Shown here piece after piece: positions 21,227-38,890 of a stretch of 51,452 nucleotides of DNA. How positions within the stretch are numbered: the first letter of the stretch is position 1; each line of letters begins with the position of its first letter. The translations under genes and the position numbers were made by a program. A model generated the notes under the pieces. That model searched no databases, was not told the DNA's origin, and worked only from the letters and a program-made list of their open reading frames with translations. The DNA lies in NCBI GenBank assembly GCA_030583805.1, contig CP129476.1, positions 1-51,452 of the forward strand. Reading direction: 5' to 3'. This stretch comes from Patescibacteria group bacterium (GTDB lineage Bacteria > Patescibacteriota > Patescibacteriia > SG8-24 > DYFX01).

Positions 21227-21257
21227 TTGCCCTGTTCGCCATCCGCCCAGGTATGGT
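21227..21257 (+). promoter_or_regulatory. Promoter-like element TTGCCC-t-GTTCGCCATCC-N7-TATGGT (19-nt spacer)
   Basis: The -10 ends 6 nt before the ATG at 21264. Same register as the elements at 26411 and 38860. Confidence 0.45.
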
Positions 21258-21263
21258 GGGAAT

Positions 21264-21569
21264 ATGCCCACCGTCCAATTTTTCCAACCGGATGAAGGCC
21301 GCCATTTTGAGGGGCCTCTCGATTTGAACACGCATCTCATCCGTCATCCGGCGGCGACCTTCTTTTTGCGCGTCGGGCCGGACGTGCGCGCCGAGACGGG
21401 CGTGCGGCCCGACGACCTGCTCGTGATCGATCGCTCGATCTCGCCGTCCTCAAACGCCGTCGCCGTGGTCGTGCGCGGGGGAGAACTGCGCGTCGAGCGA
21501 TTGCGCCGTTTTGACGACGAGGAGGTCGAGCTGTGGGGCGTCGCCACGCACCTGATCCGGCGGCTCTGA
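21264..21569 (+). CDS. UmuD'-like S24-fold protein lacking the catalytic Ser/Lys dyad
   Basis: LDLNTHLIRHPAATFFLRV aligns with UmuD IDLNQLLIQHPSATYFVKA. GDSM is replaced by PDVR and VKK by VER. No N-terminal cleavage arm. Confidence 0.65.
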   Translation: MPTVQFFQPDEGRHFEGPLDLNTHLIRHPAATFFLRVGPDVRAETGVRPDDLLVIDRSISPSSNAVAVVVRGGELRVERLRRFDDEEVELWGVATHLIRRL

Positions 21570-21583
21570 GCGCCTTCGCTCCC

Positions 21584-21612
21584 TGGACAAAACCGTGATA
21601 AAGTGCTACCGT
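21584..21612 (+). promoter_or_regulatory. Promoter TGGACA-N17-TACCGT
   Basis: The hexamers and spacing place the GTG at 21611 inside the -10, which favours the ATG at 21638 as the CDS start. Confidence 0.4.
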
Positions 21613-21637
21613 GAGCCGTTTACTACAGGCGCATCCC

Positions 21638-22786
21638 ATGGGCATTCTCGCGAAAACATCGGCACTGTACCGGGGCGTGGCAGACAGCGCGCATGCGCAC
21701 CTCGTTCCCAGTCCGCGTAACGGCCACGTTCCGCATGTCTTGAAGCACCACGTTCTCGCGGGGTACAGCGTGATTTTGATTCTGGTGAAAGCGCTCGTTA
21801 TCTCCGGCTACGTCCTCCTGCCGGCCGCCAGCGTCTACTCGAGCGCGGTGACCGCCGACAATATCGTGCGCCTGACCAACGCCGCGCGCTCGGCGCTCGG
21901 CATGGAAGACCTCGTCGTCGACAGCCGCCTTTCGCGCGCCGCCGCCGGCAAGGCCGAGGACATGGTCATCAACTCGTATTTCGCGCACACCAGCCCGACC
22001 GGCGTCACGCCGTGGTCGTGGATCCGCGGCCAAGGGTATCAATACCTCCATGCCGGCGAGAATCTGGCCGTCCACCTGTTCAGCGCGGAAGGCGTGCATG
22101 AAGGTTGGATGGCGAGCCCCTCGCACCGCGACAACATCGTGAACGGAAAATTCGCCGATATCGGCGTCGGCGTCGCCCGCGGAACCTATGAGGGTTTCGA
22201 CACGGTTTTTGTCGTCCAAATGTTCGGCACGCCGAAACAGCCGGCGCCGCAGCTCGCCGCCGCGCCGCAGCCGGAACCGACACCCGAACCTCCCGCCGCG
22301 ACAACCGCGACGGTTCTTCCGACGGCTGAAGGGTACAAGGTTACGTTGGCGGAAGGCCGCGTCGAAGCGGCAACCGCGATGATCGCGAACCAAGCCGTGA
22401 CGATGAAAAAAAACGCGGACGGCAATTTGGAAGCGACCGTGCCGGTCGACAAAAAAACGATCGAGCCGGAGGGCCAGCACGTCTACGTCGCGACCACTGA
22501 CGCGAACGGCGCGCAGGAAGTCTCGAGCGTCGCCATCGTTTCGCCGAACGCGGACGCCCAGCAAGTATTCGTGCCCGTCGGCGACATCCGCCCCCTCAAG
22601 TTGTTCGGCGTCTTTGAAATCCGCGATCTCGAAGATTCGACGAAGCGTTTTTACGTCGTGATGAGCGTGCTCCTCGGCGCCATCCTCCTGGCCAGCGTGG
22701 TCATCAGGTTCGAAGTGCAGAAGCACGCCGTTTCGCTGCACGCGCTGTTCGTGATCGGCCTCTCGCTGACGCTCGCCTTCATTTGA
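21638..22786 (+). CDS. CAP/SCP (YkwD-like) domain protein with N- and C-terminal TM segments
   Basis: NAARSALG, YFAHTSPTG, GENLA and HRDNIVNGKFADIGVG are CAP-domain hallmarks. The start could alternatively be GTG 21611. Confidence 0.75.
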   Translation: MGILAKTSALYRGVADSAHAHLVPSPRNGHVPHVLKHHVLAGYSVILILVKALVISGYVLLPAASVYSSAVTADNIVRLTNAARSALGMEDLVVDSRLSRAAAGKAEDMVINSYFAHTSPTGVTPWSWIRGQGYQYLHAGENLAVHLFSAEGVHEGWMASPSHRDNIVNGKFADIGVGVARGTYEGFDTVFVVQMFGTPKQPAPQLAAAPQPEPTPEPPAATTATVLPTAEGYKVTLAEGRVEAATAMIANQAVTMKKNADGNLEATVPVDKKTIEPEGQHVYVATTDANGAQEVSSVAIVSPNADAQQVFVPVGDIRPLKLFGVFEIRDLEDSTKRFYVVMSVLLGAILLASVVIRFEVQKHAVSLHALFVIGLSLTLAFI

Positions 22787-23498
22787 CGAGAATTTCCGCG
22801 GCGTACTCGGCCGTAACGACGAACCGCCTGAGCGCGGTTCCGACGGGATAGGATGTCTGCAAGGTCAGCATCCTTTTTTCGTTTCCGGGATCGGCAAGCA
22901 CGGAGAGGTCGTCGGCTCGGACGATCCGCGTGCCGCCGACGGTAAACGCGTAGGCGTTGCCGTCCCGGTTGCTGGCGTAGATCTTGGCGCCGCGCTTGAT
23001 TTCGGGAAGAAGGGCGAAGACGTTCTTAAAATCCCCAGCCGCCCACGGCAGGTCGCTCGAATGGCCGAACAGATACGCGTTGCCGATGTCGCCGGGCTCC
23101 GCCGTTTCGGGCAGGTGCACGACGCCTTGCTGCAGGGCGGTCTTGTAAGCGGCTTGCGTGCGCGCGGCCGCCTCGACGATCGGCGCGTCGATCCCGAGCG
23201 ACGGGATGCGCAGGCGGTTCGGCGTGCCCGCGAGGGCGAGCAGGTAGGGATCCGTCGCGCCCGGTTCCGGTTCGCTGACGACCGGGGGATTGAAGCGGTG
23301 CGCAAGCTGCTTCAAGAAAAAACCCGAGTTCGCCAACAGAAACAACACGGCGAGACCGAGAAGGATCCCGCCTGCGTACAACCATTGTCGCCGGGGAATG
23401 CGAGGCGATGCGGGAGAAGGCGTTGCCGCCGCAGTCGGCGGCACGATCGCATGCTCTTTTGGGTTCGACGGTTTCGTGCGTGAACGCTTTTTCTTCAT
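22779..23498 (-). CDS. Sortase-family transpeptidase homologue with Ser in place of the catalytic Cys
   Basis: N-terminal TM. IPSLGIDAPIVE, GNAYLFGHS (His), LTLQTSYP (canonical TLxTC) and RRFVV (Arg). Confidence 0.8.
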   Translation of the reverse strand: MKKKRSRTKPSNPKEHAIVPPTAAATPSPASPRIPRRQWLYAGGILLGLAVLFLLANSGFFLKQLAHRFNPPVVSEPEPGATDPYLLALAGTPNRLRIPSLGIDAPIVEAAARTQAAYKTALQQGVVHLPETAEPGDIGNAYLFGHSSDLPWAAGDFKNVFALLPEIKRGAKIYASNRDGNAYAFTVGGTRIVRADDLSVLADPGNEKRMLTLQTSYPVGTALRRFVVTAEYAAEILVK

Positions 23499-23504
23499 GG
23501 CTCC

Positions 23505-23510
23505 AGTATA
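23505..23510 (-). promoter_or_regulatory. -10 TATACT, 6 nt upstream of the sortase ATG (probable leaderless mRNA)
   Basis: Minus strand: tatact ggagcc ATG. Confidence 0.4.
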
Positions 23511-23514
23511 TCGC

Positions 23515-23544
23515 AAAAACACCAGGCATGTGCCTGGTGTTTTT
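23515..23544. terminator. Bidirectional-looking intrinsic terminator after the LPXTG gene
   Basis: aaaaacaccaggc-atgt-gcctggtgttttt. Confidence 0.75.
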
Positions 23545-23555
23545 GAGGGATGCGT

Positions 23556-26306
23556 TTACGAGCGTGAGCGGCGCAGGAACGGCACCGCGATCAGGAGAAC
23601 GCTCCAAAGCGTCCACGCCGGCATGCCGGTGACCGGCAGATCGCTGTCGGACGCGCCCAAGACTTGGGGTACCGGGCCGACCGGAGCGGTCGGTTCGGGC
23701 GCGGGCGGCGGCGTCGGGTCTCCGCCGGAGGGCGGGGCCGGAGGCGGCGTCGGGTCTCCACCGGAAGGCGGATTCGGGCTGCCGCCACTGGGCGGGAAAT
23801 CGTCGTGGGTCACGACGCAGATGGCGCTTTGATTCACGGCAAGCGTGCCGGTGCAGCCGGGGCTGAAGCTCCTGGCGTAGGCAGGATTGACGGAGCTGTC
23901 GACGACATAGGCGCCCGGGGCGTAGGCAAACGTGAAGCCGGGGGTATCCATACCGGCGAACGTCGAAACGATGGAAATGCCGTCGCCGACCATCATCAGG
24001 AAGGAGGCCGGCAGCGCAATGCCGCCGTCGTCATTGATGACGCGCGTCACGACGGTCAGCTGGGCGGACGAGTTGCCTCCGCCGCCCGGCGGCGTCGGGG
24101 CGATGTCGTCGTTCGTGATGGTGCACGTCTTGTAGTCTCCGGAAGAGATCGTGACGAGACCAGAAGCGTCGCAGTCGCCGGAGAACGAAGCGGCATAGTT
24201 CGGCGATCCCGTTTCGCTGACGACGTACGAGCCCTCAGACAAGACGTTCGCGGAGCCGGAAACGACCGACGTCTGATTGATGAAGAGCGGGAAGTCGGAA
24301 ACCTGGGCCGAGCCGCCGTCGTTGTTGATGACGACTTTGACGACGGTCAGGACGCCGGTCGAAGGTTCTTCATCCTCAGGCGGGGCGACGTAGGTGTTGG
24401 TGATGGTGCAGGTCAGGTTTTCGTCGGCGGCAAGGGTCACATTGCCCTGCGCGTCGCAATCGCCAGTGATGACGCCCGTGTAGTTCGCTTGATTCGTCTC
24501 GCTGACGACGTAGGAGCCGACCGGCAACGTTTCAGCCTGGCTGGACGTCACCGACGTCTGACCGATGAACAGCGGGAAGTCGGACACCTGCGCGGTGCCG
24601 CCACTCACGACTTTTACGACGGTGATCGTGCCGGTTTGCGCCGGAGGAGCGTCGTAGGTGTTGGTGATCGTGCACGTCTTGTTATCGCCGTTTTCGAGCG
24701 TGATGCCTCCTTGAGGATCGCAATCGCCGGAAATAACGCTGGTGTAGTTCGTCTGGTTCGGATCGTTCGTTTCGCTGACGACGTAGCTGCCGGCATTCAC
24801 CGTGTTCTGCGCGCCGCTCGTAACCTGGGTGTTGCCGATGAACAACGGGAAATCGCTGGCGGTCATGGAGCCGCCGACAACCACCTTCTCGACCGTCAGG
24901 ACGGCCGGGGCGTCGTCGTTCGTCAGCGTGCAGGTCAACTCTTCGCCAGCAGCCAACGTCACAAACGGGCTGCCGTCGCAGGCGCCGGAGAAGGTCGTGG
25001 TGTAGTAGCCGTTCGAACCCTGTTCAGAGATCCAGTAGGTGCCTGGCGCGAAGGTGTTGGCATCGCCGGAGTGAACGCTCGTGCTGGTGCTTGTATCGAC
25101 GACTTGGCCAGGAGCTTCGTAAACGAAGAACTGGAAATCGCCAAGCGTGGCGTCGCCGCCGTTGTCGTTCACGATGACTTTTTCGACCGTGATCGTTCCG
25201 GTGGTCGGAGCGATGGCGTCATCGTTGTTGGTCACGACGCAGGTCTTTGTTTCGCCTGAAGCAATCGTGCCGGTGCAATCAGTCGAGTAAGAAGCGGTAT
25301 AGCCTGAAGCAGCCGTTTCGACGACGGAGTAGGAGCCGGCATCCATGGTGATGCTCGTGCCGGTGTCGGAACCGGGGAAGGACGACGTCGAAACATTCGT
25401 ACCGGTGACGTTCATCGTGAAGTCAGAGGCAACGGAAGTACCAGCATCGTCGTTGACAACGTCTTTGATGACGATCAGGGTGCCGGGCTGTGTCGCAGCC
25501 GAAACAGCGTCTGCCGAAAGGGAGCGGTCTTGGTTGCCGAGGTTGGCGCCCGTCAGGCTGACAAGACGCATGTGATACGGCGAGCCGCTGATGCCGCCCG
25601 CGGAGTTACCCGTGCCCCAGTCTGAAGACGAGCCGATATGGCCTCCCCAGGCAAAGACAACCGTCGATTCGCTCGCGGTGAATTGGATCTGAACCTGCGT
25701 CGAGGCCGACGAAGCGGTCAGGTCGCCTTCGGAAACGTAGGTAATGCCGGTTCCGGAAATCGAGGCGTTATACATCGACAACGCGCGCTCGGATGCAGGG
25801 AGCGCGTTGAACGAGGTTGTCGGTTGGCCGGAAGTGGGCGAGTTCGTCGAGCTCGGTGCCGGGAATGCGGCAGTGCCGGAAAGAGAGCAGGGGGACACGT
25901 TGTCGCACGGACTGGCCGTCGACTCGGTACGATCAAACGATGTTAGATAGTCGATCGCGTGCTTGCCGCTGTGCTTGATGTCGTACTCGATTACCAAGGT
26001 GATCGTCCCGGTCGTCGGGATGTTTTCCAAGATAACGCGATACGGCGCTGACTGGCCTTCAGCGTAATGCGAGTTATTGCTGTTCAGGTTGCCGTTTTGC
26101 CATGCGCTGCCCGTGCAGTCGTTCGGCGTTGAAACCGGGCCGTTGCTGCATTGATCGAGGTCGGCAGACGGGTTCGCTTGGTGGTTACCGGCCTGGACGG
26201 CAGCGCCAACGACGATCTGGGCGATCAAGGCAAACGCCAACAGGGCGACCGTGGACGTTTTGATCCCGGATGCCACGGAGCGATGAATAAAGGTAGACGT
26301 ACGCAT
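23556..26306 (-). CDS. Large LPXTG-anchored surface protein (916 aa) with six tandem Ig-like repeats
   Basis: AAAGGGAG SD and signal peptide. C-terminus is LPVTG (nt 23625-23639) plus a hydrophobic segment plus RRSRS. A Pro-rich stalk precedes it. Confidence 0.85.
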   Translation of the reverse strand: MRTSTFIHRSVASGIKTSTVALLAFALIAQIVVGAAVQAGNHQANPSADLDQCSNGPVSTPNDCTGSAWQNGNLNSNNSHYAEGQSAPYRVILENIPTTGTITLVIEYDIKHSGKHAIDYLTSFDRTESTASPCDNVSPCSLSGTAAFPAPSSTNSPTSGQPTTSFNALPASERALSMYNASISGTGITYVSEGDLTASSASTQVQIQFTASESTVVFAWGGHIGSSSDWGTGNSAGGISGSPYHMRLVSLTGANLGNQDRSLSADAVSAATQPGTLIVIKDVVNDDAGTSVASDFTMNVTGTNVSTSSFPGSDTGTSITMDAGSYSVVETAASGYTASYSTDCTGTIASGETKTCVVTNNDDAIAPTTGTITVEKVIVNDNGGDATLGDFQFFVYEAPGQVVDTSTSTSVHSGDANTFAPGTYWISEQGSNGYYTTTFSGACDGSPFVTLAAGEELTCTLTNDDAPAVLTVEKVVVGGSMTASDFPLFIGNTQVTSGAQNTVNAGSYVVSETNDPNQTNYTSVISGDCDPQGGITLENGDNKTCTITNTYDAPPAQTGTITVVKVVSGGTAQVSDFPLFIGQTSVTSSQAETLPVGSYVVSETNQANYTGVITGDCDAQGNVTLAADENLTCTITNTYVAPPEDEEPSTGVLTVVKVVINNDGGSAQVSDFPLFINQTSVVSGSANVLSEGSYVVSETGSPNYAASFSGDCDASGLVTISSGDYKTCTITNDDIAPTPPGGGGNSSAQLTVVTRVINDDGGIALPASFLMMVGDGISIVSTFAGMDTPGFTFAYAPGAYVVDSSVNPAYARSFSPGCTGTLAVNQSAICVVTHDDFPPSGGSPNPPSGGDPTPPPAPPSGGDPTPPPAPEPTAPVGPVPQVLGASDSDLPVTGMPAWTLWSVLLIAVPFLRRSRS
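23707..23778 (-). repeat. Two tandem 36-nt repeats encoding the PPSGGDPTPPPA stalk
   Basis: ggcggcgtcgggtctccRccggaRggcgg occurs at 23707 and 23743. Confidence 0.7.
23801..25484 (-). repeat. Six tandem domain repeats of about 90 aa within the LPXTG protein
   Basis: Recurrent pattern G(T/V)(I/L)TV.KVV...SDFPLFI...GSYVVSET...Y...(S/T)GDCD...C(T/V)(I/V)TN. Confidence 0.75.
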
Positions 26307-26410
26307 GGGAGTGCTCCCTTTAGAGTGAATAATGAACGCGCCAAGAAGGACGCGTTCCAGTGCACGAACCTCACCGTATTTAGCCTGGCGTGTCAAGGGG
26401 AAACACCCCC

Positions 26411-26441
26411 TTGCTCTGTTCGCCGCCGGCCGCCCTATCCT
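26411..26441 (+). promoter_or_regulatory. Promoter-like element TTGCTC-t-GTTCGCCGCCG-N7-TATCCT (19-nt spacer)
   Basis: The -10 ends 7 nt before the umuC ATG at 26449. Same register as the elements at 21227 and 38860. Confidence 0.45.
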
Positions 26442-26448
26442 GGGGGGT

Positions 26449-27723
26449 ATGCCGCAGCGATCCAAGACTCTTTTTGGCCTGGTGGATTGTAACAACTTCT
26501 TCGTTTCTTGCGAGAGGGTTTTTACCCCCAGCTTGGAGAAAAAACCGGTCGTCGTGCTCTCTTCGAACGACGGCTGTATTGTCGCGCGTTCGAATGAGGC
26601 GAAAGCGCTCGGGATCCCGATGGGCGCGCCGATGTTCGAGTGGCGGGACGTCTGCCGCCGGGGCGGCGTGGTCGCGCTCTCCGGCAACCACGCTCTTTAT
26701 GCCGACATGTCCGACCGCGTCATGCGTACGGTCGCCGAGTTCGTCGACGACTACGAGGTGTATTCCATCGACGAAGCCTTTTTGCGCTTCGGTCCGCGCG
26801 AGGATGCGGAGGGAACCTGCCGTGCCCTGCGCGCGGCGGTGCATCGACGCGTCGGCATTCCGGTCTCGATCGGCCTCGACGCCACGCGCACGCTCGCCAA
26901 GGCGGCGGCGAAGTTCGCGAAACGCCACCCCGAGTTGCACGGCGTCTTTTCGCTCCAGGGTCATCCGCGCAAGGACGAGCTGCTTGAATCATTCGAGGTC
27001 GGTGATCTTTGGGGAATCGGGCGCCAGTATTCCAAAAAATTGATCGGCGCCGGCATTCGGACGGCGCGGATGCTCCGCGACCTGCCTGATACCTGGATAC
27101 TCCGACATCTCGGCTCGTCCGGGCTTCGCGTCGCGATGGAGCTGCGCGGCATGCCGTGCGGCGAGTACGCCGCGGCGCGCGAACATCGCAAGAGCATCAT
27201 CTGTTCGCGTTCCTGCGGGCGGCCGATCGTTTCCTTGCCGGAACTGAAAGAGGCCGTGGCGACGCATATCGCTTCGGCGGCCGAGACGTTGCGCGAAGAC
27301 GGCTTGCGCGCGCGGTTCCTGACGGTTTTCGTCGGATTCCGCAAGCAGGGGTACGGCATGCCGTATCCCTCGGGGCGTTCCGTGCAGCTCGAAACGCCGA
27401 CCAACGACACGCCCGAACTCATTCGCGCCGCGCATACGCTCGTCGACGCGATGCATCACGACGGCTTGGCGTACAAGAAGGTCGGCGTGCGCCTGACGGA
27501 TTTTTCCGGCGAAGAGGCGCATCAGCTCGATGTGTTTGGAAGAGGCGAACCGGACCCCAAACGCCGCGCGGCTTGGGCGGCGCTCGACAAGATCAACGCG
27601 GAGTGGGGGACGGGCACCGTGAAATTCGCCGCCGAAGGCGTCGCGCGCGGCTGGAAGCCGAAAGCGGAACGCCGCTCTCCGCGCTACACCACGCGTTGGG
27701 ACGAACTCAAAGTCGTGCGTTGA
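26449..27723 (+). CDS. umuC: Y-family translesion DNA polymerase (UmuC/Pol V-like)
   Basis: LVDCNNFFVSCERVF, SSNDGCIVARSNEAKALGI, YSIDEAFL. Confidence 0.85.
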   Translation: MPQRSKTLFGLVDCNNFFVSCERVFTPSLEKKPVVVLSSNDGCIVARSNEAKALGIPMGAPMFEWRDVCRRGGVVALSGNHALYADMSDRVMRTVAEFVDDYEVYSIDEAFLRFGPREDAEGTCRALRAAVHRRVGIPVSIGLDATRTLAKAAAKFAKRHPELHGVFSLQGHPRKDELLESFEVGDLWGIGRQYSKKLIGAGIRTARMLRDLPDTWILRHLGSSGLRVAMELRGMPCGEYAAAREHRKSIICSRSCGRPIVSLPELKEAVATHIASAAETLREDGLRARFLTVFVGFRKQGYGMPYPSGRSVQLETPTNDTPELIRAAHTLVDAMHHDGLAYKKVGVRLTDFSGEEAHQLDVFGRGEPDPKRRAAWAALDKINAEWGTGTVKFAAEGVARGWKPKAERRSPRYTTRWDELKVVR

Positions 27724-27754
27724 AAAAGAAAAGACGAACCGCGCGCGGTTCGTC
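27723..27754 (-). terminator. Intrinsic terminator for the 27753-28094 gene; the hairpin is shared with the umuC 3' end
   Basis: Perfect palindrome gacgaaccgcg/cgcggttcgtc followed on the minus strand by TTTTCTTTTT. Confidence 0.7.
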
Positions 27755-28094
27755 ACCAGAAGCTGAGTCGTACCTCGTCCGGTCGGCGCGAAGCGCCGAG
27801 ATGTTCGCGAAGCTTCATGCGTTCGGCGGACGTCATCGTCACGACCTTGACCTTGTCGTCCTTGCCGCGGATCGGTTCGGGCTCGCTCGCGTGGAGCCAG
27901 CCGAAGATCATGTCGAACGCGTAACCGCCGTGCGTGACGCGGCAGAAGACGTAGGCCCTGGCTCCGAAGTCCCGCGTTTCCACGCGGTCGTGCTCGAATC
28001 TCGTCACGGGATTCTTGTAGGGCTTGAGCCCTTCGACGACGCGCACCCTCGGTCCATCTTCGTACACGAGCTTGATTCTTATGCCTTTGGGCAT
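27753..28094 (-). CDS. Hypothetical protein (113 aa)
   Basis: GGAGG SD 6 nt before the ATG. Has its own promoter and terminator. No recognisable motif. Confidence 0.6.
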   Translation of the reverse strand: MPKGIRIKLVYEDGPRVRVVEGLKPYKNPVTRFEHDRVETRDFGARAYVFCRVTHGGYAFDMIFGWLHASEPEPIRGKDDKVKVVTMTSAERMKLREHLGASRRPDEVRLSFW

Positions 28095-28111
28095 CGTGCT
28101 CCTCCGCGGCG

Positions 28112-28140
28112 AACCTAGCGCACATACGCCCTCTCGTCAA
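28112..28140 (-). promoter_or_regulatory. Promoter TTGACG-N17-TAGGTT
   Basis: Minus strand: ttgacg (28135-28140), 17-nt spacer, taggtt (28112-28117). Confidence 0.55.
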
Positions 28141-28187
28141 GCGTCGGTCGAGTGGAAAAACACCGTTCATTCTGGCACTATGAAGCC

Positions 28188-28556
28188 ATGGATACCCTGA
28201 AAAAACTGACGGAAGCCGCCAACGCCTTCCGCGACGACCGCGACTGGCGGCAGTTTCATACGCCGAAGGATCTGGCCGTCGGTTTGTCCCTCGAGGCTTC
28301 CGAAGTGCTGGAGCATTTTCTTTGGAAGAACGACGCGCAAGTCGCGGCGTACGTGAACGCCGGAGGAAAAGCGGAACTGAAAAAAGAAATGGCCGACGTC
28401 ATGATCTACCTCCTCTTCATGGCGCACGATCTCGGCATCGATCTTGAGCACGCCGTCCTCGACAAGCTGGAAGAGAACGCGCGCAAGTATCCGGTCGCGC
28501 AGGCCAAGGGACGCAGCGACAAGTACACGGCGTATCAACAAGCCGAACGCGCATGA
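28188..28556 (+). CDS. MazG-like nucleotide pyrophosphohydrolase
   Basis: FRDDRDWRQFHTPKDLA, EASEVLEHF and EMADVMIYL are typical of the all-alpha NTP-PPase fold. Confidence 0.8.
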   Translation: MDTLKKLTEAANAFRDDRDWRQFHTPKDLAVGLSLEASEVLEHFLWKNDAQVAAYVNAGGKAELKKEMADVMIYLLFMAHDLGIDLEHAVLDKLEENARKYPVAQAKGRSDKYTAYQQAERA

Positions 28557-28858
28557 AACGCGCCATCTACATCGTTCTCTTCGTCGTATTCGGAACGCTG
28601 CTCCAGTTCTTGGCGCACGCGCTGCTTGAAATGGGCATGATCTCGCTCCTGCTCGCCGACTTCGAGCGGTACGGCCTCGGTCTTTCCTGGAGCCAGTGGT
28701 ACGCGGTGCACCGGATGCTGAGCCTCGCGTTGCTTGTCGCCGGCGTCACGCTCGGCTATCGCGGCGGCGTCTATTGGTGGCAGGCGATCTACGTTGAACA
28801 ACGGTACAAGCAATGGAAGTGGTGGCCTAAAAAAACGTCTCTTCGACCGCGCGTATGA
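28553..28858 (+). CDS. Hypothetical membrane protein (3 TM)
   Basis: ATGA overlap with the upstream gene. Hydrophobic. Confidence 0.5.
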   Translation: MKRAIYIVLFVVFGTLLQFLAHALLEMGMISLLLADFERYGLGLSWSQWYAVHRMLSLALLVAGVTLGYRGGVYWWQAIYVEQRYKQWKWWPKKTSLRPRV

Positions 28859-31014: not shown

Positions 31015-31020
31015 ATTTGA

Positions 31021-31029
31021 TGCTATACT
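31021..31029 (+). promoter_or_regulatory. Extended -10 element TGcTATACT, 8 nt upstream of the VIT1 ATG
   Basis: tgctatact ttccttgt ATG (31038). Confidence 0.45.
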
Positions 31030-31037
31030 TTCCTTGT

Positions 31038-31751: not shown

Positions 31752-31752
31752 T

Positions 31753-32313
31753 ATGAACGAACGCGCCGTGCATTTCATAAAAGACGCCAGCGTTCTCGGC
31801 GTCAGCGTGGCGGTGGCCGTATTGATTGCGACGACGGATACGGTTTCGCGCTTTCTCGTTTCGACGCAGGAGCTGCAAGTGATCGGAAGTTTTTTGGCGG
31901 GCATGTGCTTCACGTCGGTGCTCACCACGGCTCCCGCCATCGTCACCCTCGGCGAAATCGTGGCGCTCGGCGGGAGCCCCTGGATGACGGCTGCGATCGG
32001 CGCTCTCGGCGCCGTGCTCGGCGATCTGCTCTTGTTCGCCGTCGTTCGAGACCGGTTGTCGGAACATTTGGCCGAACATCTCAAAAACACGCGCGGTTGG
32101 AGCCGTTTTTCGCTCCTGATGCGCTCGAAGTCCATGCGGTGGTTTTCGTTTTTTGTGGGGGCCTTGGTCATCGCCTCGCCGTTCCCCGACGAGCTCGGCG
32201 TGAGTCTTCTCGGCATCGCCAAAATGCGCACGATCTGGTTCGTGCTCATATCGTACACGTTTAATTTTATCGGGATCTTGGCGCTCGGCGGCGTCGTTCG
32301 TCTTCTGGTGTAA
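31753..32313 (+). CDS. Hypothetical polytopic membrane protein
   Basis: 186 aa, about 5 TM. Starts 1 nt after the VIT1 stop. Confidence 0.55.
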   Translation: MNERAVHFIKDASVLGVSVAVAVLIATTDTVSRFLVSTQELQVIGSFLAGMCFTSVLTTAPAIVTLGEIVALGGSPWMTAAIGALGAVLGDLLLFAVVRDRLSEHLAEHLKNTRGWSRFSLLMRSKSMRWFSFFVGALVIASPFPDELGVSLLGIAKMRTIWFVLISYTFNFIGILALGGVVRLLV

Positions 32314-32317
32314 CGCC

Positions 32318-32752
32318 TCAGCGCGAAAATTTCGAAAGAAGGTGGTTGGAAATCTTCCGAATCATCGCTTCGTTCGGGCCGGTGACGATGACGACGCGTT
32401 TGGTCTCGGGAATGTAGGAGCGCAGCTGCAGGCGCGCGCCGAAACGCATGAACTGCAACTGCGGCGTCGCGACCCAGCTCGGAACGGCGGCTACGTCAGC
32501 GACGTGCACCGCGACGAGATCGGCGCAATCGGAACAATCTTTTTTCGCGTCAGAAGCCGAAAGCTTTTCTTTCGTGCGGAAATAGCGCACGGGCGGCAGG
32601 TAACGGTTCGCTTCTGTCGGGACGGCCACCGCCTCGGCGACACCGGCGGCGGCGAGGTCCTCGACGGTAACTTCAAGAGGATCCGCAGCCCGCGTTCCGA
32701 GGGCGGCGGCAGCGACGAGCAGGAGTGGGACGATCCAAAGCCGTTTTTTCAT
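32318..32752 (-). CDS. Hypothetical secreted protein
   Basis: Signal peptide MKKRLWIVPLLLVAAAALG. No recognisable domain. Confidence 0.5.
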   Translation of the reverse strand: MKKRLWIVPLLLVAAAALGTRAADPLEVTVEDLAAAGVAEAVAVPTEANRYLPPVRYFRTKEKLSASDAKKDCSDCADLVAVHVADVAAVPSWVATPQLQFMRFGARLQLRSYIPETKRVVIVTGPNEAMIRKISNHLLSKFSR

Positions 32753-32802
32753 ATTGTAGGCTGCGTATCTACAGTATACACTGATCATGCATTCATGCCG
32801 TT

Positions 32803-34146
32803 ATGTCGACCCATAAAACCAACCCACTCTCCAGGACCCTCAAGACGTTTTTTGGGCGCGACACGTCGATCTTGCGCGAGGCGCTCAAGGCGATCCAACC
32901 CGCCGAGCTTGGCGTGATCGTGAGCGGCTTGTCCGAACGCGAGCAATTGCAAGTCTTGAACTTGCTTGAAGCGCAAAAACTCTCGCGGGTTCTTTGGGAA
33001 GTCAGTCCGCACATGCGACGCCGCCTGCTTGGGCGCATGCCGTTCGACAACCTGACCAAGCTCGTGGCGGTCATGGAATCCGACGAGGCCGTCGACATCA
33101 TCCAGCTGCTCGATCGCCGGCGCAGAGAGCGGATGCTTGAAGCGCTCAAGCGCCACGATCCGAAGAAAATCCTGCCCCTCCTCGGATTCGAAGAGAAGAC
33201 CGCCGGCGGTTTGATGAAATCCGAGTATCTTCGAGCTGAATCGGGGAAGTCGGTTGAAGAAGTCCGAAAGGCGATCGCCGCCGCGAACAGCGGCACGCAG
33301 AAGTCGTCGACCGTGTACGTGGTCGATCCCCAAAACGTCCTGGTCGGCGCGATCTCGCTCATGCGTCTCGCGACGGCGGCGGCCGACAGCCGTATCGACG
33401 ACTTGGCGCACGGGCCGGCGGCCAAGCTGCCGGTCGGCATGTCGCAGGATGAAGTAACGCAGCGTTTCAGCGATCTCGACGCAGTCGAACTCCCGGTCGT
33501 CGACGGGCGCGGAAAATTGCTCGGCGTCGTCACAGCCGACGACATGCTCGACGTGCTCAGAGAGTCGCTCTCGGAAGATCTCTCGCGTTTCAGCGGTACC
33601 TCGGAAGACGAACACGTCAGCGACCCCGCGTGGCTTTCGATCCGCCGGCGTTTGCCGTGGCTCCTCGTGAACCTCGCCACCGCCGTGCTGGCGGCCTCGG
33701 TCGTCGCGCAGTTCCGCGACACGATCAGCCAGATCGTCATCTTGGCCGCGCTCATGCCGATCGTGGCCGGCATGGGCGGCAATGCCGTGACGCAGACGCT
33801 CGGCGTTTCCATCCGCGCCCTGGCGCTTCACCAACTGCATACGTGGGACATGTGGAAAATCGCGATTCGCCAGATGCTAGTGGGCGCGGCGAACGGTTTC
33901 CTGACGGGCACCGTCATGGCGGGTCTCGTCTATCTCTGGACGCGCGATCTCCAGCTTTCGATCGTCATGGTGGTCGCCATGACCATGACGCTGTTTATCG
34001 CGGGTCTCGGAGGTATTCTCATTCCCGTGACGATGAAGAAGTTGAAGATCGACCCCGCGCTTGCTTCAACTGTTTTCACGACGACGCTGACGGACGTGGT
34101 CGGCTTCTTCACGTTCCTTGGTTTGGCCAAAATTCTTTTGACATGA
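32803..34146 (+). CDS. mgtE: Magnesium transporter MgtE
   Basis: N-domain, tandem CBS region, and a C-terminal TM domain with PIVAGMGGNAVTQT. Confidence 0.9.
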   Translation: MSTHKTNPLSRTLKTFFGRDTSILREALKAIQPAELGVIVSGLSEREQLQVLNLLEAQKLSRVLWEVSPHMRRRLLGRMPFDNLTKLVAVMESDEAVDIIQLLDRRRRERMLEALKRHDPKKILPLLGFEEKTAGGLMKSEYLRAESGKSVEEVRKAIAAANSGTQKSSTVYVVDPQNVLVGAISLMRLATAAADSRIDDLAHGPAAKLPVGMSQDEVTQRFSDLDAVELPVVDGRGKLLGVVTADDMLDVLRESLSEDLSRFSGTSEDEHVSDPAWLSIRRRLPWLLVNLATAVLAASVVAQFRDTISQIVILAALMPIVAGMGGNAVTQTLGVSIRALALHQLHTWDMWKIAIRQMLVGAANGFLTGTVMAGLVYLWTRDLQLSIVMVVAMTMTLFIAGLGGILIPVTMKKLKIDPALASTVFTTTLTDVVGFFTFLGLAKILLT

Positions 34147-35501
34147 AACTTCATTTTTTCGGCGCAGCGCAGGAAGTGACCGGCACGTGCTACCTCCTCG
34201 AATCGGGGAGCCATAAAGTGCTGGTCGATTGCGGCATCTTTCAAGGCGGAGAAGGGGACAGCAAGCGCAACCAGCTGCCGTTCCCGTTCGATCCCGATTC
34301 GATCGACGCGGTGTTTTTGACGCACCCGCACATGGATCACGTCGGGCGCGTGCCGTTGCTCGTGAAACGCGGGTATCGCGGACCGATCTTCTCGACGTTT
34401 CCGACCGCCGAACTCAGCAAGTTGTTGTGGAAGGACATGCTGTCGATCATGCAGGACGCTGAAAAGCGCGATCGCGTGCCGGCGCTCTACGACGAAGACG
34501 ACGTCGCGAAAGCTGAGGAACGCCTCGTGCCCGTCGAGTACGAGACACTGGCCGAGATCTGCGCCGGCGCGATCAAGGCGACCTTTCACGATGCCGGACA
34601 CGTGCTCGGGTCGGCCTTCATCGAGTTCAATCTCGAGCACCGGACGATCGTGTTCTCCGGCGACCTCGGCAACGATGACGTGCCGATTTTGCGGCCGACG
34701 TCGCCGCTGCCGCAGTGCGACGTGCTCGTGGTCGAATCGACGTATGGCGACCGCCTGCATGAAGACTTGCAAACGCGCCGCACGATCCTTCGCGATTTGG
34801 TGAAAGAGACGGTCGAGAAGAAGGGCGTGCTCATGATCCCGACGTTCGCGATCGAACGCACGCAGGAAATCATGCTGACGCTGCATCGCCTGGCGGAGAA
34901 CGGGGAGATTCCCCGCGTACCGATTTTTCTCGACAGCCCGCTGGCCATCAACGCCACGCACGTGTACGAGGAGTACGGCCGCTATTTCAACGAGAACGCC
35001 AAAAACGAAATGCTTTCAGGGCACGAGCTCTTCGAGCTGCCGGGTTTTGTCGCGACCAAGACCTCGGACATGTCGAAAAAAATAAACGAGGTCGTACCGC
35101 CGAAAGTCATCCTGGCCGGCGCGGGCATGATGACCGGCGGGCGCATCCTGCATCACCTCGTGCGGTATCTGCCCGACCCCAACTCGACGCTCATGATCGT
35201 CGGCTACCAGGCCCACGGCACGATCGGGCGGAGGCTCTACGAAGGTGCCAAGACCGTCCGTATCCACGGCCACGACGTGCACGTGAACGCGACTGTTACG
35301 TCCGTCGGCGCCTGGAGCGCGCACGCCGACCAAGCCAAACTCCTGCGCTGGATCCAAAGCGCGCCCAAGAAGCCGGAGGTCGTTCTCGTGACGCATGGGG
35401 AACAGAACGCCTCCGAAACCCTCGAACGAAAGCTGCGGCGCGACCTGCATATCGACGCCTACGTGCCGGCTCCAGGGCAGACATTCAACCTGCATACCTA
35501 A
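34143..35501 (+). CDS. MBL-fold beta-CASP family ribonuclease (CPSF73/RNase J-like)
   Basis: ATGA overlap with mgtE. HPHMDH motif, beta-CASP region, C-terminal SAHAD. Confidence 0.85.
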   Translation: MKLHFFGAAQEVTGTCYLLESGSHKVLVDCGIFQGGEGDSKRNQLPFPFDPDSIDAVFLTHPHMDHVGRVPLLVKRGYRGPIFSTFPTAELSKLLWKDMLSIMQDAEKRDRVPALYDEDDVAKAEERLVPVEYETLAEICAGAIKATFHDAGHVLGSAFIEFNLEHRTIVFSGDLGNDDVPILRPTSPLPQCDVLVVESTYGDRLHEDLQTRRTILRDLVKETVEKKGVLMIPTFAIERTQEIMLTLHRLAENGEIPRVPIFLDSPLAINATHVYEEYGRYFNENAKNEMLSGHELFELPGFVATKTSDMSKKINEVVPPKVILAGAGMMTGGRILHHLVRYLPDPNSTLMIVGYQAHGTIGRRLYEGAKTVRIHGHDVHVNATVTSVGAWSAHADQAKLLRWIQSAPKKPEVVLVTHGEQNASETLERKLRRDLHIDAYVPAPGQTFNLHT

Positions 35502-35512
35502 TAAGGATATAC

Positions 35513-35539
35513 AAAATTAGCCTAATATAGGCTAATTTT
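35513..35539. repeat. Perfect 10-bp inverted repeat aaaattagcc-N7-ggctaatttt in the AT-rich junction
   Basis: Read directly. Could be a bidirectional terminator for the RNase gene or an operator. Confidence 0.6.
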
Positions 35540-35572
35540 GCTAATATAAGCAATTTATATTGTCAGTTAGTA

Positions 35573-35601
35573 TTGACAAAACCGCTTAAATATGCTAGAC
35601 T
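35573..35601 (+). promoter_or_regulatory. Promoter TTGACA-N17-TAGACT for the island operon A-D
   Basis: ttgaca 35573-35578, 17-nt spacer, tagact 35596-35601. Confidence 0.6.
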
Positions 35602-35651
35602 GCCTTCATCGTAGCACTGGCAGTTCAACCCGTATTTCCGGAGGATTTCTC

Positions 35652-35963
35652 ATGAAGACCCTGCTCATTTCGCTCGTCATCGCCCTCGGCCTCTTCACCG
35701 CCACCCAGACCGCCTCGGCCGAGCGCAGGCTCGAGAATCCGGTGCACAACGTCGTGAAGCTCGAGATCAAGAAGGCGAAGTTCGTCTTCAGCAAGCCGAC
35801 CACGATCCAGATCAAGCCCTGTGTCGACGACGCCCGCTACGAGTGCGTCTACAAGCTGGTCGGCAAGCGCCGCAACAAGGAGATCAAGATCTACGAGTAC
35901 CGGGCGCACGACTACGTCCTCCCGATCTACACGACCGAGGAGAAGGTCGCCGCCAAGAACTGA
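35652..35963 (+). CDS. Island gene A: small secreted protein (103 aa)
   Basis: GGAGGA SD 6 nt before the ATG. Signal peptide ending TASA-ER. Two Cys. Near-total G/C at third codon positions. Confidence 0.65.
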   Translation: MKTLLISLVIALGLFTATQTASAERRLENPVHNVVKLEIKKAKFVFSKPTTIQIKPCVDDARYECVYKLVGKRRNKEIKIYEYRAHDYVLPIYTTEEKVAAKN

Positions 35964-35995
35964 TCTCACGATCCCACCACCAACCACGCCTCAGC

Positions 35996-36079
35996 GCCTC
36001 AGTCGCGTCGAGCACTCCTGCTCGACGTCCCGCCAAAGGTTCCGAAACGATTCGGAAACTTCGGCGGGAAATTCTTCCC
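35996..36079 (+). repeat. Intergenic two-hairpin element, copy 1
   Basis: Hairpin 1 gcgtcgagca-ctcc-tgctcgacg (36005-36028). Hairpin 2 cccgcc..ttccgaa-acga-ttcggaa..ggcggg (36029-36068). Confidence 0.75.
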
Positions 36080-36132
36080 AACTGTTCCCTATACGCGCAC
36101 CGGCGCACACAACCCAGACCAAGGAGCTTTCC

Positions 36133-36495
36133 GTGAATCACTCCCTATTGCGTCGTGAAGCCGTCATCCCTCCGCCCCCGCTGTCGAAGCGCGTTATTCA
36201 CCTGCTGTCGCTCATGAAGCTTCAGTTTCTCGTCATCGGCCTCTCGGCTGCGGTTGCCACGATGTGGTGCGGCCCTATCGGGTTCGATGCCGCTCTTGCA
36301 CAAAAGATCGGCAAGGTTGATCAGCCCGCCTTGCAGCATCCTACGCAAGAGTCGCCATCGTGCATCCTGAGCTTCGGCGACCAACTCGCCGTGCTTCGAG
36401 TGCTGAACGTCGATCCTTCGACCGTTGATGCAGTGCGCTGCGCCGTCGACGGTAAGACGGTCGAGATGACCTATACAGTGCGTTCTCAGCACTGA
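36133..36495 (+). CDS. Island gene B: small protein with one hydrophobic segment (120 aa)
   Basis: AAGGAG SD 6 nt before the GTG. Hydrophobic segment MKLQFLVIGLSAAVATMWCG. Alternative start at ATG 36214. Confidence 0.55.
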   Translation: MNHSLLRREAVIPPPPLSKRVIHLLSLMKLQFLVIGLSAAVATMWCGPIGFDAALAQKIGKVDQPALQHPTQESPSCILSFGDQLAVLRVLNVDPSTVDAVRCAVDGKTVEMTYTVRSQH

Positions 36496-36520
36496 GCTCA
36501 GTACCGAACTTATTCTGCTT

Positions 36521-36595
36521 CGCGTCGAGCACTCCTGCTCGACGTCCCGCCAAAGGTTCCGATACACTCGGAATCTCCGGCGGGAAATCCTTCCC
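36521..36595 (+). repeat. Intergenic two-hairpin element, copy 2
   Basis: Same 45-nt core as copy 1. Hairpin 2 differs in loop and inner stem but stays paired (ttccga-tacac-tcggaa). Confidence 0.75.
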
Positions 36596-36643
36596 TCCGA
36601 TCACCAAACACTCGAGGCTTTCGTCTCGAAAGGAGCTCGTTCC

Positions 36644-37030
36644 ATGTTCGGCAAAGCCTTGTTCATCCTCGTGGTTGCGATCATCGCCATCGCTGTCTTT
36701 CTCGTCTGGTTGGACGGATGGCGCGCCAAGCGTCGCAAGCGCCAGCAGCAGAAGATCTTCCTCGACGTGAAGATCGAGGGCGTTCCGTACTGGGCCTACA
36801 AGCACGCAATCGGTCCGTTCGACACGATCGCGCAGCTGCAGGACTGGGAGCGGCGTTTCAAGGAAGGCCTCAAGAACCTCTCCTTGCCCAGTGAACCCTC
36901 GTTCACGCACCGCTACTCCGACAGCTACCGATGGACTCCGGAAGACGCCTTGAGCGACCTTCGGAAGTCGTTGCGCACGTTCGCGTCCCTGCCGGTCGCA
37001 GACCTGCCCACGGATCGGTACGTGAACTGA
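36644..37030 (+). CDS. Island gene C: N-terminally anchored membrane protein (128 aa)
   Basis: AGGAG SD. TM segment ALFILVVAIIAIAVFLVWL followed by KRRKRQQQK. Confidence 0.6.
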   Translation: MFGKALFILVVAIIAIAVFLVWLDGWRAKRRKRQQQKIFLDVKIEGVPYWAYKHAIGPFDTIAQLQDWERRFKEGLKNLSLPSEPSFTHRYSDSYRWTPEDALSDLRKSLRTFASLPVADLPTDRYVN

Positions 37031-37047
37031 CCGTCTCGTTCGTTTTC

Positions 37048-37077
37048 GCCTCAGCCGCGTCGAGCACTCCTGCTCGA
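37048..37077 (+). repeat. Intergenic element, copy 3 (hairpin 1 only, followed by a different hairpin)
   Basis: gcctcagccgcgtcgagcactcctgctcga matches copy 1 over about 29 nt. Confidence 0.65.
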
Positions 37078-37184
37078 AAAAGAAAGATGGGTCCGTATCC
37101 GAGAGGCCCATCGTTCCGCAACACGCAGGCGATCGATCGCTCGGACAAGGAAGTTTCCCCACAACATCGCACCCCGAGGTTGTC

Positions 37185-37439
37185 ATGGATGAGAAAATCC
37201 TGATCGTCATCACGACCTTTCGCAGCGACAACGATCGCGACCTGAGGCGGGAATGCCTCGGGCCGTACGATCGGCAAACGGCGCCGGCCAAGCTCGAAGG
37301 CCTCTTCGCGCTTTGCCGCAAGGAAGGCATGAAAAGCCTGAAGGGCTTCAAGGCCATCCGCCGCGGCGTCTGCCTGCACAAGCCGGGGACGCGCTTGTGC
37401 GTCGAGATCAGGGTGGACAGCTTTGTCCCCAGCCACTGA
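37185..37439 (+). CDS. Island gene D: small cytoplasmic protein (84 aa)
   Basis: GAGG SD 5 nt before the ATG. Four Cys. No recognisable motif. Confidence 0.5.
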   Translation: MDEKILIVITTFRSDNDRDLRRECLGPYDRQTAPAKLEGLFALCRKEGMKSLKGFKAIRRGVCLHKPGTRLCVEIRVDSFVPSH

Positions 37440-37478
37440 TCCGTGCAGCGCGTCGTTGACCGGCGCCACTCAGTCCTC

Positions 37479-37503
37479 AAGACCCTCCCAAGGGTCTTTT
37501 GTT
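37479..37503 (+). terminator. Intrinsic terminator ending the A-D operon
   Basis: aagaccct-ccca-agggtctt followed by a T-run. Confidence 0.75.
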
Positions 37504-37519
37504 CGTATTGAGCTTATTA

Positions 37520-37548
37520 TTGACATGATTGCTTCTACCTGATAGCCT
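37520..37548 (+). promoter_or_regulatory. Promoter TTGACA-N17-TAGCCT for island gene E
   Basis: ttgaca 37520-37525, 17-nt spacer, tagcct 37543-37548. Confidence 0.55.
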
Positions 37549-37592
37549 CAGTCTCGTCTTTGGACAGCCCGATTGCCGGGTAGGAGGTTTCG

Positions 37593-38795
37593 ATGCGTTC
37601 TACGTCCATCTTGCTGCTCTCCTTGGTTTTCCTGGTCTGTGCCGGCGCCTGTGCCGGACGCCAGCGGCCCCAGCAGGGGCTGCATTCCGAGACGCGCCAG
37701 ACGGCGCCGAACGCTCCCGACCCCGACGTCCGGATCGTTCCCAATGACACCGTCGACACGAAGATCAGCCTGCCCGAAGCGCCGACGACGTCGGACGAGG
37801 TCGCGGCTTCTGTCGTGACGAAGAAGCCGGTTCCGCCCCGCGCCAAGCGCGTTCGCTCCGTCCAGGAGCGACCCAGCGCCGAAGCCCGGCGCGTGACCGA
37901 CACGGACGCCGCCCGGCCGCAGGCCGAGCGCGCGCGAACGCGCGGGACGCACGTCCCGGCCGCACTGCCTGACAACGACGCAACCGTCATTGCCATGCGT
38001 GCCGAGCCCGGCGCGCCGCCCCATCGTTCCGACGCTCCCGTCGCGCAAGCGACCGTCGAGCCCGATCCGTTCCATGCTCCTCCGAGCTCTTCCTCGACGC
38101 AGGTCGCTTTCCGCGACACGCGCACACGACCATTGACACCTCTGTCCCCGCGAGAGCGGGAACGCGCCAACGCCGCCGCCCTCGCCGCCCTGGAATCACC
38201 GATTTCCGCGGCGACGAACGCCGCGCAGCCCGCACCGACGGCTCCTTCCGAGCCGGCATCCGTCATCTCCGCCACCGACACGACTTCGCGGCGCCTCGAT
38301 GCCGCGATCGCCGACTCCGAACCTTCGTCGGCCACGCAGGCCGGCGTTTCCACGAACCTGTACGTTCCGAGCGCTCCAGAGAGCGCTTCGAGTTCCCGCC
38401 TGTACCAGTACGTTCCCGCGATCATCGTCGCGCTGCTCCTCGGCATCCTCATCGGCTACGTGCTTTCGCGCCTTCCGGCGCGCGGATCTTCATTCGATGA
38501 CGACATCTATCCGGATGTCGATCACGCGTCAGCCGGCGCGCATGCGCCCGAGTCCGTCCCGGTATCCGAACCTGCTCCCGTACAGGAGCCCGTTCCCGTG
38601 CTCGTCGTTCCAAGTCCCGCCAGTTCGAGCGTGGAGGCCATGCCTCCCACGCAGTTCCCCGAAGGCTCCGGCAGCATCGTCACATCCGCAGGACCCGACG
38701 CCTGCTCTTCCGTCTCGGGCGAGATCGAGCTCCTCGATTCTCCCGCGCCTCAAGAGGCGCCGACACCACCAACAACCGAAACGCGGTTGAACTGA
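37593..38795 (+). CDS. Island gene E: low-complexity Pro/Ala/Ser-rich envelope protein with a signal peptide and a late TM (400 aa)
   Basis: AGGAGG SD. Signal ILLLSLVFLVCAGAC. TM IIVALLLGILIGYVL near residue 285. Confidence 0.65.
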   Translation: MRSTSILLLSLVFLVCAGACAGRQRPQQGLHSETRQTAPNAPDPDVRIVPNDTVDTKISLPEAPTTSDEVAASVVTKKPVPPRAKRVRSVQERPSAEARRVTDTDAARPQAERARTRGTHVPAALPDNDATVIAMRAEPGAPPHRSDAPVAQATVEPDPFHAPPSSSSTQVAFRDTRTRPLTPLSPRERERANAAALAALESPISAATNAAQPAPTAPSEPASVISATDTTSRRLDAAIADSEPSSATQAGVSTNLYVPSAPESASSSRLYQYVPAIIVALLLGILIGYVLSRLPARGSSFDDDIYPDVDHASAGAHAPESVPVSEPAPVQEPVPVLVVPSPASSSVEAMPPTQFPEGSGSIVTSAGPDACSSVSGEIELLDSPAPQEAPTPPTTETRLN

Positions 38796-38821
38796 CCGCA
38801 CCACGACCCCACCGTTTCTGA

Positions 38822-38851
38822 CGGCCCCTCCTCGAGGCGGCCGGTTTTTTT
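38822..38851 (+). terminator. Intrinsic terminator closing the island
   Basis: GC-rich imperfect hairpin cggcccctc/gaggcggccg followed by TTTTTTT. Confidence 0.7.
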
Positions 38852-38859
38852 ATTCCGCT

Positions 38860-38890
38860 TTGACACGTTCGCCATCCCGTTCTCTAAGCT
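38860..38890 (+). promoter_or_regulatory. uvrB P1: TTGACA-c-GTTCGCCATCC-N7-TAAGCT (19-nt spacer)
   Basis: Same register and GTTCGCC core as the elements at 21227 and 26411. Confidence 0.45.

Follow-up and report, generated by a model that had tools for sequence, protein, structure and literature searches.

A 32-bp promoter module of the form TTG-N4-GTTCGCC-N11-TANNNTG stands upstream of DNA-repair genes in a stretch of 51,452 nucleotides (nt) from a Patescibacteria group bacterium (contig CP129476.1, hereafter the window). The genes in question are a umuD'-like gene, umuC, and the pair uvrB and uvrA. Judged from sequence, the module is a new, clade-specific cis-element that is limited to translesion-synthesis and excision-repair operons. 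In our reading it is a factor-dependent promoter, probably of the activator type, that serves a very small damage regulon independent of LexA; we assign this reading a probability of about 0.5. The window has a G+C content of 61% and comes from a genome of the Patescibacteria (candidate phyla radiation, CPR) near Uhrbacteria and Magasanikbacteria. Sludge metagenomes contain DNA that is near-identical to it. The modules, the second promoter of uvrB, and the genes that they precede are given below.

21227..21258, + strand: umuD'-like promoter module, with TTGCCC at 21227-21232, GTTCGCC at 21234-21240, TATGGT at 21252-21257, and G at 21258.
26411..26442, + strand: umuC promoter module, with TTGCTC, GTTCGCC at 26418-26424, TATCCT at 26436-26441, and G at 26442.
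38860..38891, + strand: uvrB promoter P1, with TTGACA, GTTCGCC at 38867-38873, TAAGCT at 38885-38890, and G at 38891.
38898..38926, + strand: uvrB promoter P2, a canonical TTGACA-N17-TATTTT without the GTTCGCC core, also kept in relatives.
21264-21569, + strand: umuD'-like gene, 101 amino acids, S24 peptidase fold (Pfam PF00717).
26449-27723, + strand: umuC, a Y-family polymerase of the Pol V type (Pfam IMS, IMS_C, and DUF4113).
38943-40988, + strand: uvrB (Pfam).
41001-43589, + strand: uvrA (Pfam; NCBIfam UvrA equivalog, 1310 bits with a cut-off of 1147).

All three modules have a spacer of 19 nt, and the three strings lie exactly where the original prediction, made from the letters alone, had placed them. 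The umuD'-like ATG is at 21264, 6 nt past the end of the -10 hexamer, and the umuC ATG is at 26449, 7 nt past it. These distances had been pointed out before; they are exact and are kept in relatives. The start predicted for uvrB P1 is near 38897, inside the -35 hexamer of P2, and the latter is the canonical 17-nt-spacer promoter that had been described downstream of P1. Pfam and NCBIfam also bear out the gene identities that had been proposed for the umuD'-like gene, umuC, and uvrBA. UmuC scored 345 bits with the NCBIfam UmuC model and at most 157 bits with the Pol IV families. The genes uvrB and uvrA, which are 12 nt apart, presumably form one operon. UvrA has only 862 residues, as about 80 of the usual 940 are missing from the N-terminal half in the NCBIfam alignment, and it is still above the equivalog cut-off. 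The gene uvrC, at 44682, has its own TATTAT-N6-ATG geometry and lacks GTTCGCC.

The window contains three copies of the composite TTGNCNNGTTCGCC-N11-TANNNT (one of them with one mismatch), against an expectation of 0.01, and none of 100 shuffles reached three. GTTCGCC by itself is not enriched (17 copies vs 19.8 expected), so the signal resides in the composite and its register. Among the TTGACN...TANNNT sites of the window, the spacer is 17 nt in nine, 16 nt in one, and 18 nt in none, and the sole site with 19 nt is uvrB P1. The earlier statement that the other promoters use 17 nt holds for sites of this form, apart from the single 16-nt spacer. A generic promoter scanner, which allows spacers of 16-18 nt, detected P2 and missed all three modules.

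Homologous promoters were collected from the motif-bearing clade, which consists of uncultivated sludge and groundwater Patescibacteria. Searching with full-length UvrB gave distant, motif-free relatives only, a sampling artefact caused by saturation on universal peptides. Close relatives, including the 646-kb contig JBAZZB010000001.1, were obtained by searching with UmuC and with an internal fragment of UvrB; an exact-protein lookup of the window UmuC gave no record. The window, 10 GTDB species genomes, and several metagenome contigs together supplied 27 unique sites, of which 15 are umuD'-like, 2 umuC, and 10 uvrB. At every orthologous umuD', umuC, and uvrB promoter that was retrieved, the module is present in a single register, and this is the conservation on which the original prediction had staked itself. 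The umuD'-like module has orthologous sites in 14 other assemblies with the register unchanged; five relatives have it upstream of umuD' with the 19-nt spacer and a -10 end 6 nt before the ATG. Homologues from metagenomes keep the module and its register down to 60% identity of the umuD'-like protein, and a canonical UmuD at 45% identity, with the N-terminal arm and the GDSM and VKRL motifs intact, is without it. The P1 module of uvrB is conserved in nine relatives. Six out of six close relatives, in which the UvrB fragment is 82-94% identical, carry both the P1 module and a canonical P2, and the module was found at none of 72 uvrB loci of more distant Uhrbacteria (at most 68% identity).

The bases TTG (-37 to -35), GTTCGCC (-30 to -24), and TA...T (-12 to -7) are invariant across the 27 sites. 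They belonged to the search pattern, yet all the orthologous promoters examined had them. The G at -6 lay outside the pattern and is found in 27 of 27 sites vs 4 of 9 ordinary promoters. A T at -22 is shared by 25 sites and a C at -15 by 21, positions 17-25 drift freely with zero indels, and the umuD' sites show no conservation upstream of 'CTTGC'. With respect to the housekeeping sigma-70 hexamers, TTG and TA...T are present in 27/27 sites, and the uvrB sites read TTGAC[AG]. The spacer, for which the housekeeping sigma-70 rule is 17 ± 1 bp, is 19 bp in 27/27. This pattern of conservation supports the module as a real, selectively maintained cis-element.

The specificity of the module was assessed by several scans. 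The first 15 sites, which themselves score 25-43, served to build a weight matrix; it gave one other match (14.5) in 141 kb of clade DNA, and in 1.14 Mb from distant relatives no score reached 14. When 293 kb of clade DNA were searched with TTG-N(2-7)-GTTCGCC-N(7-15)-TANNNTG, only the N4/N11 combination occurred, and the core plus -10 without TTG was absent from the same DNA. GTDB species genomes, 596 Gbp in total, were scanned with TTGMNNYGTTCGCCAT-N9-TANNNTG and yielded 79 matches vs approximately 70 expected by chance. Ten clade genomes account for 14 of these, 6 immediately in front of umuD' and 8 in front of uvrB; the remaining 65, a number close to chance expectation, are spread over unrelated phyla. 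In the 646-kb contig the strict form matches just twice, at umuD'C and at uvrB. An excess of the module upstream of unrelated genes, named earlier as a sign that would speak against a damage regulon, was seen neither in the matrix scan nor in the 596-Gbp scan. A scan of viral contigs gave 15 matches, which is chance-like. One match, in L198, was rejected as a module site: 'ATGCCCACTGTC' follows it, but the open reading frame (ORF) ends after 16 codons, and the match was attributed to chance.

The arrangement of the umuD' and umuC genes offers a further view of the module. Most relatives have the order gpsA, umuD', umuC, and in five of them umuD' and umuC overlap (ATGA) and form one operon. In the window, the two genes are separated by the following cassette.

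21611..26306: cassette of a CAP-domain protein (+ strand) and a sortase plus SpaA-type pilin (- strand), assigned by Pfam and by synteny with L081-L086, L249, and L255.

The pilin of the cassette is a SpaA-type protein of 916 amino acids. The cassette separates umuD' from umuC in the window and in CAYFZV010000002 (L087), and is absent from the other relatives. In L087, the only other split operon, umuC is preceded by TTGCGC-c-GTTCGCC-N11-TACCCT-G, with 7 nt to the ATG. Once the cassette had split the operon, umuC gained its own copy of the module. Re-acquisition of the same architecture at umuC is good evidence that the module is needed for proper control. The intergenic region between pilin and umuC also contains a conserved inverted repeat, GAACGCG-N10-CGCGTTC (26334-26357). 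Relatives with an intact umuD'C have an ORF of about 130 amino acids right after umuC (4605-5096 in L081 and 4666-5061 in L249), which starts with MPKILI(I/V)EDD. It is receiver-like, but far below the Pfam threshold (18.6 vs 30.2 bits); at this place the window carries a MazG-like gene.

The umuD'-like protein is a diverged member of its family. It scored 26.5 bits with PF00717 (cut-off 23.3), phmmer matched it to UmuD' 1I4V at E = 6e-10, and among NCBIfam families it comes closest to the Pol V autoproteolytic subunit, at 65 bits and below the cut-off of 110. Alignments to the UmuD/UmuD' structures 1I4V, 1UMU, and 8GMT start at about residue 20 of Escherichia coli (E. coli) UmuD, and the protein begins about 4 residues before the equivalent of the E. 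coli Cys24/Gly25 cleavage site; it is, so to speak, 'born cleaved'. The catalytic dyad is replaced (Ser60 by Val41 and Lys97 by Glu78), and V41 and E78 are invariant in seven clade sequences. More distant members retain the Ser, have Glu for Lys, and are still truncated at the N terminus. Besides the window, these observations cover L081-L086, L237, and L249-L258. A truncated protein without the Ser/Lys dyad cannot be gated by RecA-stimulated self-cleavage. Without such gating, control of the mutagenic polymerase may have shifted to transcription from the module, and it plausibly rests on this promoter.

The short distance between the -10 hexamer and the start codon was also considered. In approximately 8 of 56 genes of the window, a -10 hexamer ends 5-8 nt before the start codon without a Shine-Dalgarno sequence, and this geometry at other genes makes leaderless initiation plausible in this genome. 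Leaderless umuD' and umuC mRNAs would be the simplest reading of the conserved distance of 6-7 nt. The alternative of TANGGTG as a Shine-Dalgarno sequence rather than a -10 hexamer was discarded, as GGTG occurs only at the umuD' sites and TA...TG in all three classes. A hairpin or terminator over the umuD' start was likewise discarded as a functional element: it is strong in the window and not conserved. This hairpin (21253-21274, GGTGGG/CCCACC) has the umuD' ATG in its loop, is followed by a T-run, and has a folding energy of -16.3 kcal/mol (z -3.25); in relatives it is weak or absent. A leaderless mRNA could not form this hairpin, which would be limited to transcripts reading through from gpsA. 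Two metatranscriptomes, X8 and X15, contain the organism at a depth of 2-5 only, which is too shallow for start mapping. Their RNA contigs leave the uvrB and umuC motifs uncovered (gaps at 38828-38907 and 26372-26463). One RNA piece of 151 nt begins at 38908, between the predicted starts of P1 (~38897) and P2 (~38933), and the umuC RNA begins at 26464, with none upstream of the ATG. These sparse contigs agree with the model very weakly and are far from proof.

In the proposed mechanism, the housekeeping sigma factor would read a -35-like TTGMNN (-37 to -32) and a -10 TANNNT with G at -6. The 19 bp between the hexamers exceed the usual 17 of this genome by 2 bp, and a sequence-specific protein that binds the asymmetric GTTCGCC (-30 to -24) beside sigma region 4 would make the over-long promoter usable. 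Possible modes are a distortion of the spacer, as for MerR-type regulators, or a re-positioning or bridging of sigma region 4, as in the sigma adaptation by PafBC or in the T4 MotA/AsiA system. The module would drive leaderless umuD'(C) and umuC mRNAs, and P1 would act as an extra inducible promoter upstream of a constitutive P2 of uvrBA. A factor-dependent reading is supported by the single register in three non-homologous promoter classes and by the lack of partial versions in the 293 kb of clade DNA. Moreover, a near-consensus -35 is kept at P1 though a strong P2 adjoins it, which suggests that a 19-bp P1 would be of little use unless activated. An inverted second half-site is at most faint (2.41 of 7 matches vs 1.68 expected), and the asymmetry of the core speaks against a repressor that binds as a symmetric dimer, as LexA does. 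We infer that a protein binds the core, that this protein activates, and that damage is the signal.

Several known systems resemble the module in part. MerR-type promoters have good hexamers, a spacer of 19-20 bp, and a dyad-symmetric operator inside the spacer. MerR-dependent promoters such as Pmer, PcopA, PsoxS, and PzntA are like the module in that an over-long spacer holds a regulator-type site. A centred perfect dyad is found in L084 (TTGCGC-t-GTTCGCC-AT-GGCGAAC-gg-TAAGGT); a MerR-type dyad was nevertheless rejected, as L084 is one of 27 sites and the others are near background. The targets of MerR systems concern metal or oxidative stress, whereas those of the module are DNA-repair genes. 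MerR-family regulators are encoded close to their promoters, often in divergent orientation. No member of the MerR or any other helix-turn-helix (HTH) family was found among the genes of the window or among the neighbours in relatives, at those loci only. T4 middle promoters combine an asymmetric MotA box, centred near -30, with a sigma-70 -10 about 11-13 bp downstream. These promoters, at which MotA acts with AsiA by 'sigma appropriation', are mentioned in work on PafBC (PMC8635444). The combination of asymmetric box and sigma-70 -10 is similar to the module, but the T4 system belongs to a phage, has no -35 element, and is unrelated in sequence.

PafBC, a WYL-type activator of Actinobacteria, recognizes a -26 element at -23 to -28 (PMC8635444). 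This short asymmetric spacer element above a canonical -10 is like the module, and the match is one of geometry only. PafBC also provides LexA-independent control of DNA-damage genes. PafBC promoters lack a -35 element, whereas all sites of the module have TTG at -37 to -35, and the GTC triplet critical for PafBC differs from the sequence of the module core. The PafBC regulon comprises approximately 150 genes, whereas 2-3 operons were detected for the module, and the window contains no WYL gene. Other WYL activators, DriD of Caulobacter and DdaA of Moraxellaceae, control damage-response genes independently of LexA from non-optimal promoters (PMC12340889, PMC12392091). Their sites are palindromic (CGAC-N7-GTCG and CGWCA-N5-TGWCG), unlike the module.

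LexA boxes of the SOS response (CGAAC-N4-GTTCG in Gram-positive bacteria and GTTC-N7-GTTC in Alphaproteobacteria) are common to umuDC and uvrB(A) promoters, and the module shares the GTTCG half-site with them. LexA boxes have two half-sites, whereas the module has a single half-site without a conserved partner and in a strictly fixed register; a direct-repeat partner of the core matches no better than background. Neither GAAC-N4-GTTC nor GTTC-N7-GTTC was found at the module promoters or at uvrB of the 72 distant Uhrbacteria, and the original prediction was right that the motif is unlike the LexA boxes it had named. With a UmuD' analogue incapable of self-cleavage, the logic of RecA as co-protease has been lost at least in part. 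There is no lexA in the 51-kb window. Sanchez-Osuna, Barbe and Erill reportedly made a comparative study of the Patescibacteria SOS network in 2017. A further inverted repeat, GAACG-N8-CGTTC at 38915-38932, overlaps the -10 of P2; in relatives its right arm, GCGTTCT, is largely conserved and its left arm only partly. It was set aside as a LexA-type box owing to this partial conservation, and may represent either another operator, unrelated to the module, or no more than the first transcribed bases.

A number of observations weigh against an activator-dependent damage promoter. Near these operons, the window and the corresponding neighbourhoods in relatives have no WYL, MerR, LexA, or other HTH gene, and the small unannotated neighbours and the receiver-like ORF after umuC, taken as regulator candidates, gave no significant match. 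The three promoter classes could stem from one duplicated module, in which case the shared register would partly reflect ancestry. The module also departs from both of its nearest models, from PafBC promoters by its invariant -35-like TTG and from MerR operators by the lack of a dyad. In addition, the RNA evidence consists of single low-depth contigs with possible DNA carry-over, and the regulon size is a lower bound, as the strict scan required GTTCGCCAT.

GTTCGCC may instead be the operator of a repressor that occupies the spacer of a 19-bp promoter weak by design and is removed upon damage or another signal. This is unlikely in our view, yet it carries real weight: a position between -35 and -10, such as that of the core, is classic for steric repression, and the core contains GTTCG, the half-site of Gram-positive-type LexA boxes. 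Moreover, umuDC and uvrB are classic repressed SOS genes, and a mutagenic polymerase is best kept at a low level. A dimeric repressor of the LexA kind requires a second half-site, however, and here there is none, inverted or direct. LexA-type boxes also float relative to the hexamers, but only one register is seen here, and at uvrB, with its strong P2, there would be little gain from a derepressed 19-bp P1 upstream. No repressor gene turned up at these loci. A separate factor would be superfluous if the whole block, including an extended upstream element, were read by an alternative sigma-70-family factor with a 19-bp rule. The invariance of spacing and sequence over all sites is what a sigma-specific promoter would show, and the window encodes an extracytoplasmic function (ECF) sigma factor with a putative membrane anti-sigma factor (13552-15590). 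We still consider this explanation improbable, because the -35 (TTGACA at uvrB) and the -10 (TANNNT plus G) resemble those of the housekeeping sigma factor, and the conserved block from -37 to -22 is longer than a single helix-turn-helix of region 4 could cover. An AAC within the -35 and a CGT within the -10, separated by about 16-17 bp, are typical of ECF promoters. Both signatures are absent, and the ECF gene has no copy of the motif upstream despite the autoregulation to be expected.

The ECF reading was rejected: the coding-direction strand has no AAC/CGT, no matrix match lies upstream of 13552, and an ECF-spaced -10 would put the start inside the ORF. The ECF sigma factor itself has 173 amino acids and is nearest to BldN/SigM in NCBIfam, below the cut-off. 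It is followed by a protein of 506 amino acids with one predicted membrane segment and no family, which is probably its anti-sigma factor. Readings on the reverse strand (GGCGAAC as an ECF -35, or a sigma-54-like TGGC...GC) were also dismissed, given that the module is always oriented toward the repair gene, no conserved gene lies on the opposite side, and the sigma-54 spacing does not fit. Finally, the module could be a weak intrinsic promoter that was copied among genes, with the core kept for DNA shape or basal strength and no dedicated trans-factor. A common ancestry of the three classes and the failure to find a regulator would both suit this idea. It is very improbable all the same: seven contiguous invariant bases beside drifting neighbours, with UmuD' identity down to 60%, look like a base-specific recognition footprint, and the module is confined to functionally linked genes.

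A more specific form of the activator-dependent model can be outlined tentatively, and we regard it as possible, with doubts outweighing the arguments in its favour. CPR bacteria may possess an as yet undescribed switch for DNA-damage genes, in which a monomeric or asymmetric factor reads GTTCGCC in the spacer and re-fits the housekeeping holoenzyme onto a 19-bp promoter. This would be a third solution beside MerR and PafBC, and would serve a minimal regulon independent of RecA and LexA that consists of a dead, pre-activated UmuD', UmuC, and UvrBA.

Patescibacteria cannot be cultivated alone, and, to our knowledge, experiments have revealed next to nothing about how their transcription is controlled. 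The module offers a testable cis-element of 32 bp with a single register and 2-3 operons per genome, and it ties translesion synthesis to excision repair without a recognisable LexA box. If an activator binds it, LexA-independent damage responses of the kind known for PafBC, DriD, and DdaA would extend to the candidate phyla radiation, together with a new geometry of promoter remodelling. The motif also serves as a specific marker of the clade and as bait in a search for the regulator.

Some other sequences of the window are of minor interest. A promoter with a 17-nt spacer at 3713-3741, TTGACG-t-GTTTGCC-a-...-TAAGGT, lies upstream of a gene of the fatty-acid-hydroxylase family (3784-4467). 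Its spacer has one mismatch to GTTCGCC in the same register after the -35, and A rather than G follows the -10; we estimate the probability of such a match by chance at ~1-3%. An ORF at 12980-13456 has a third-position G+C of 0.87 and matches the Pfam family 'NucS shadow ORF' (PF20704); either strand may be the coding one. The promoter TTGACA-N17-TAATCT (11582-11610), with the nrdD region on one side and a ParA/MinD-like ATPase gene on the other, has in its spacer a perfect inverted repeat, TGCGACT-A-AGTCGCA, which looks like a candidate operator for a regulator.

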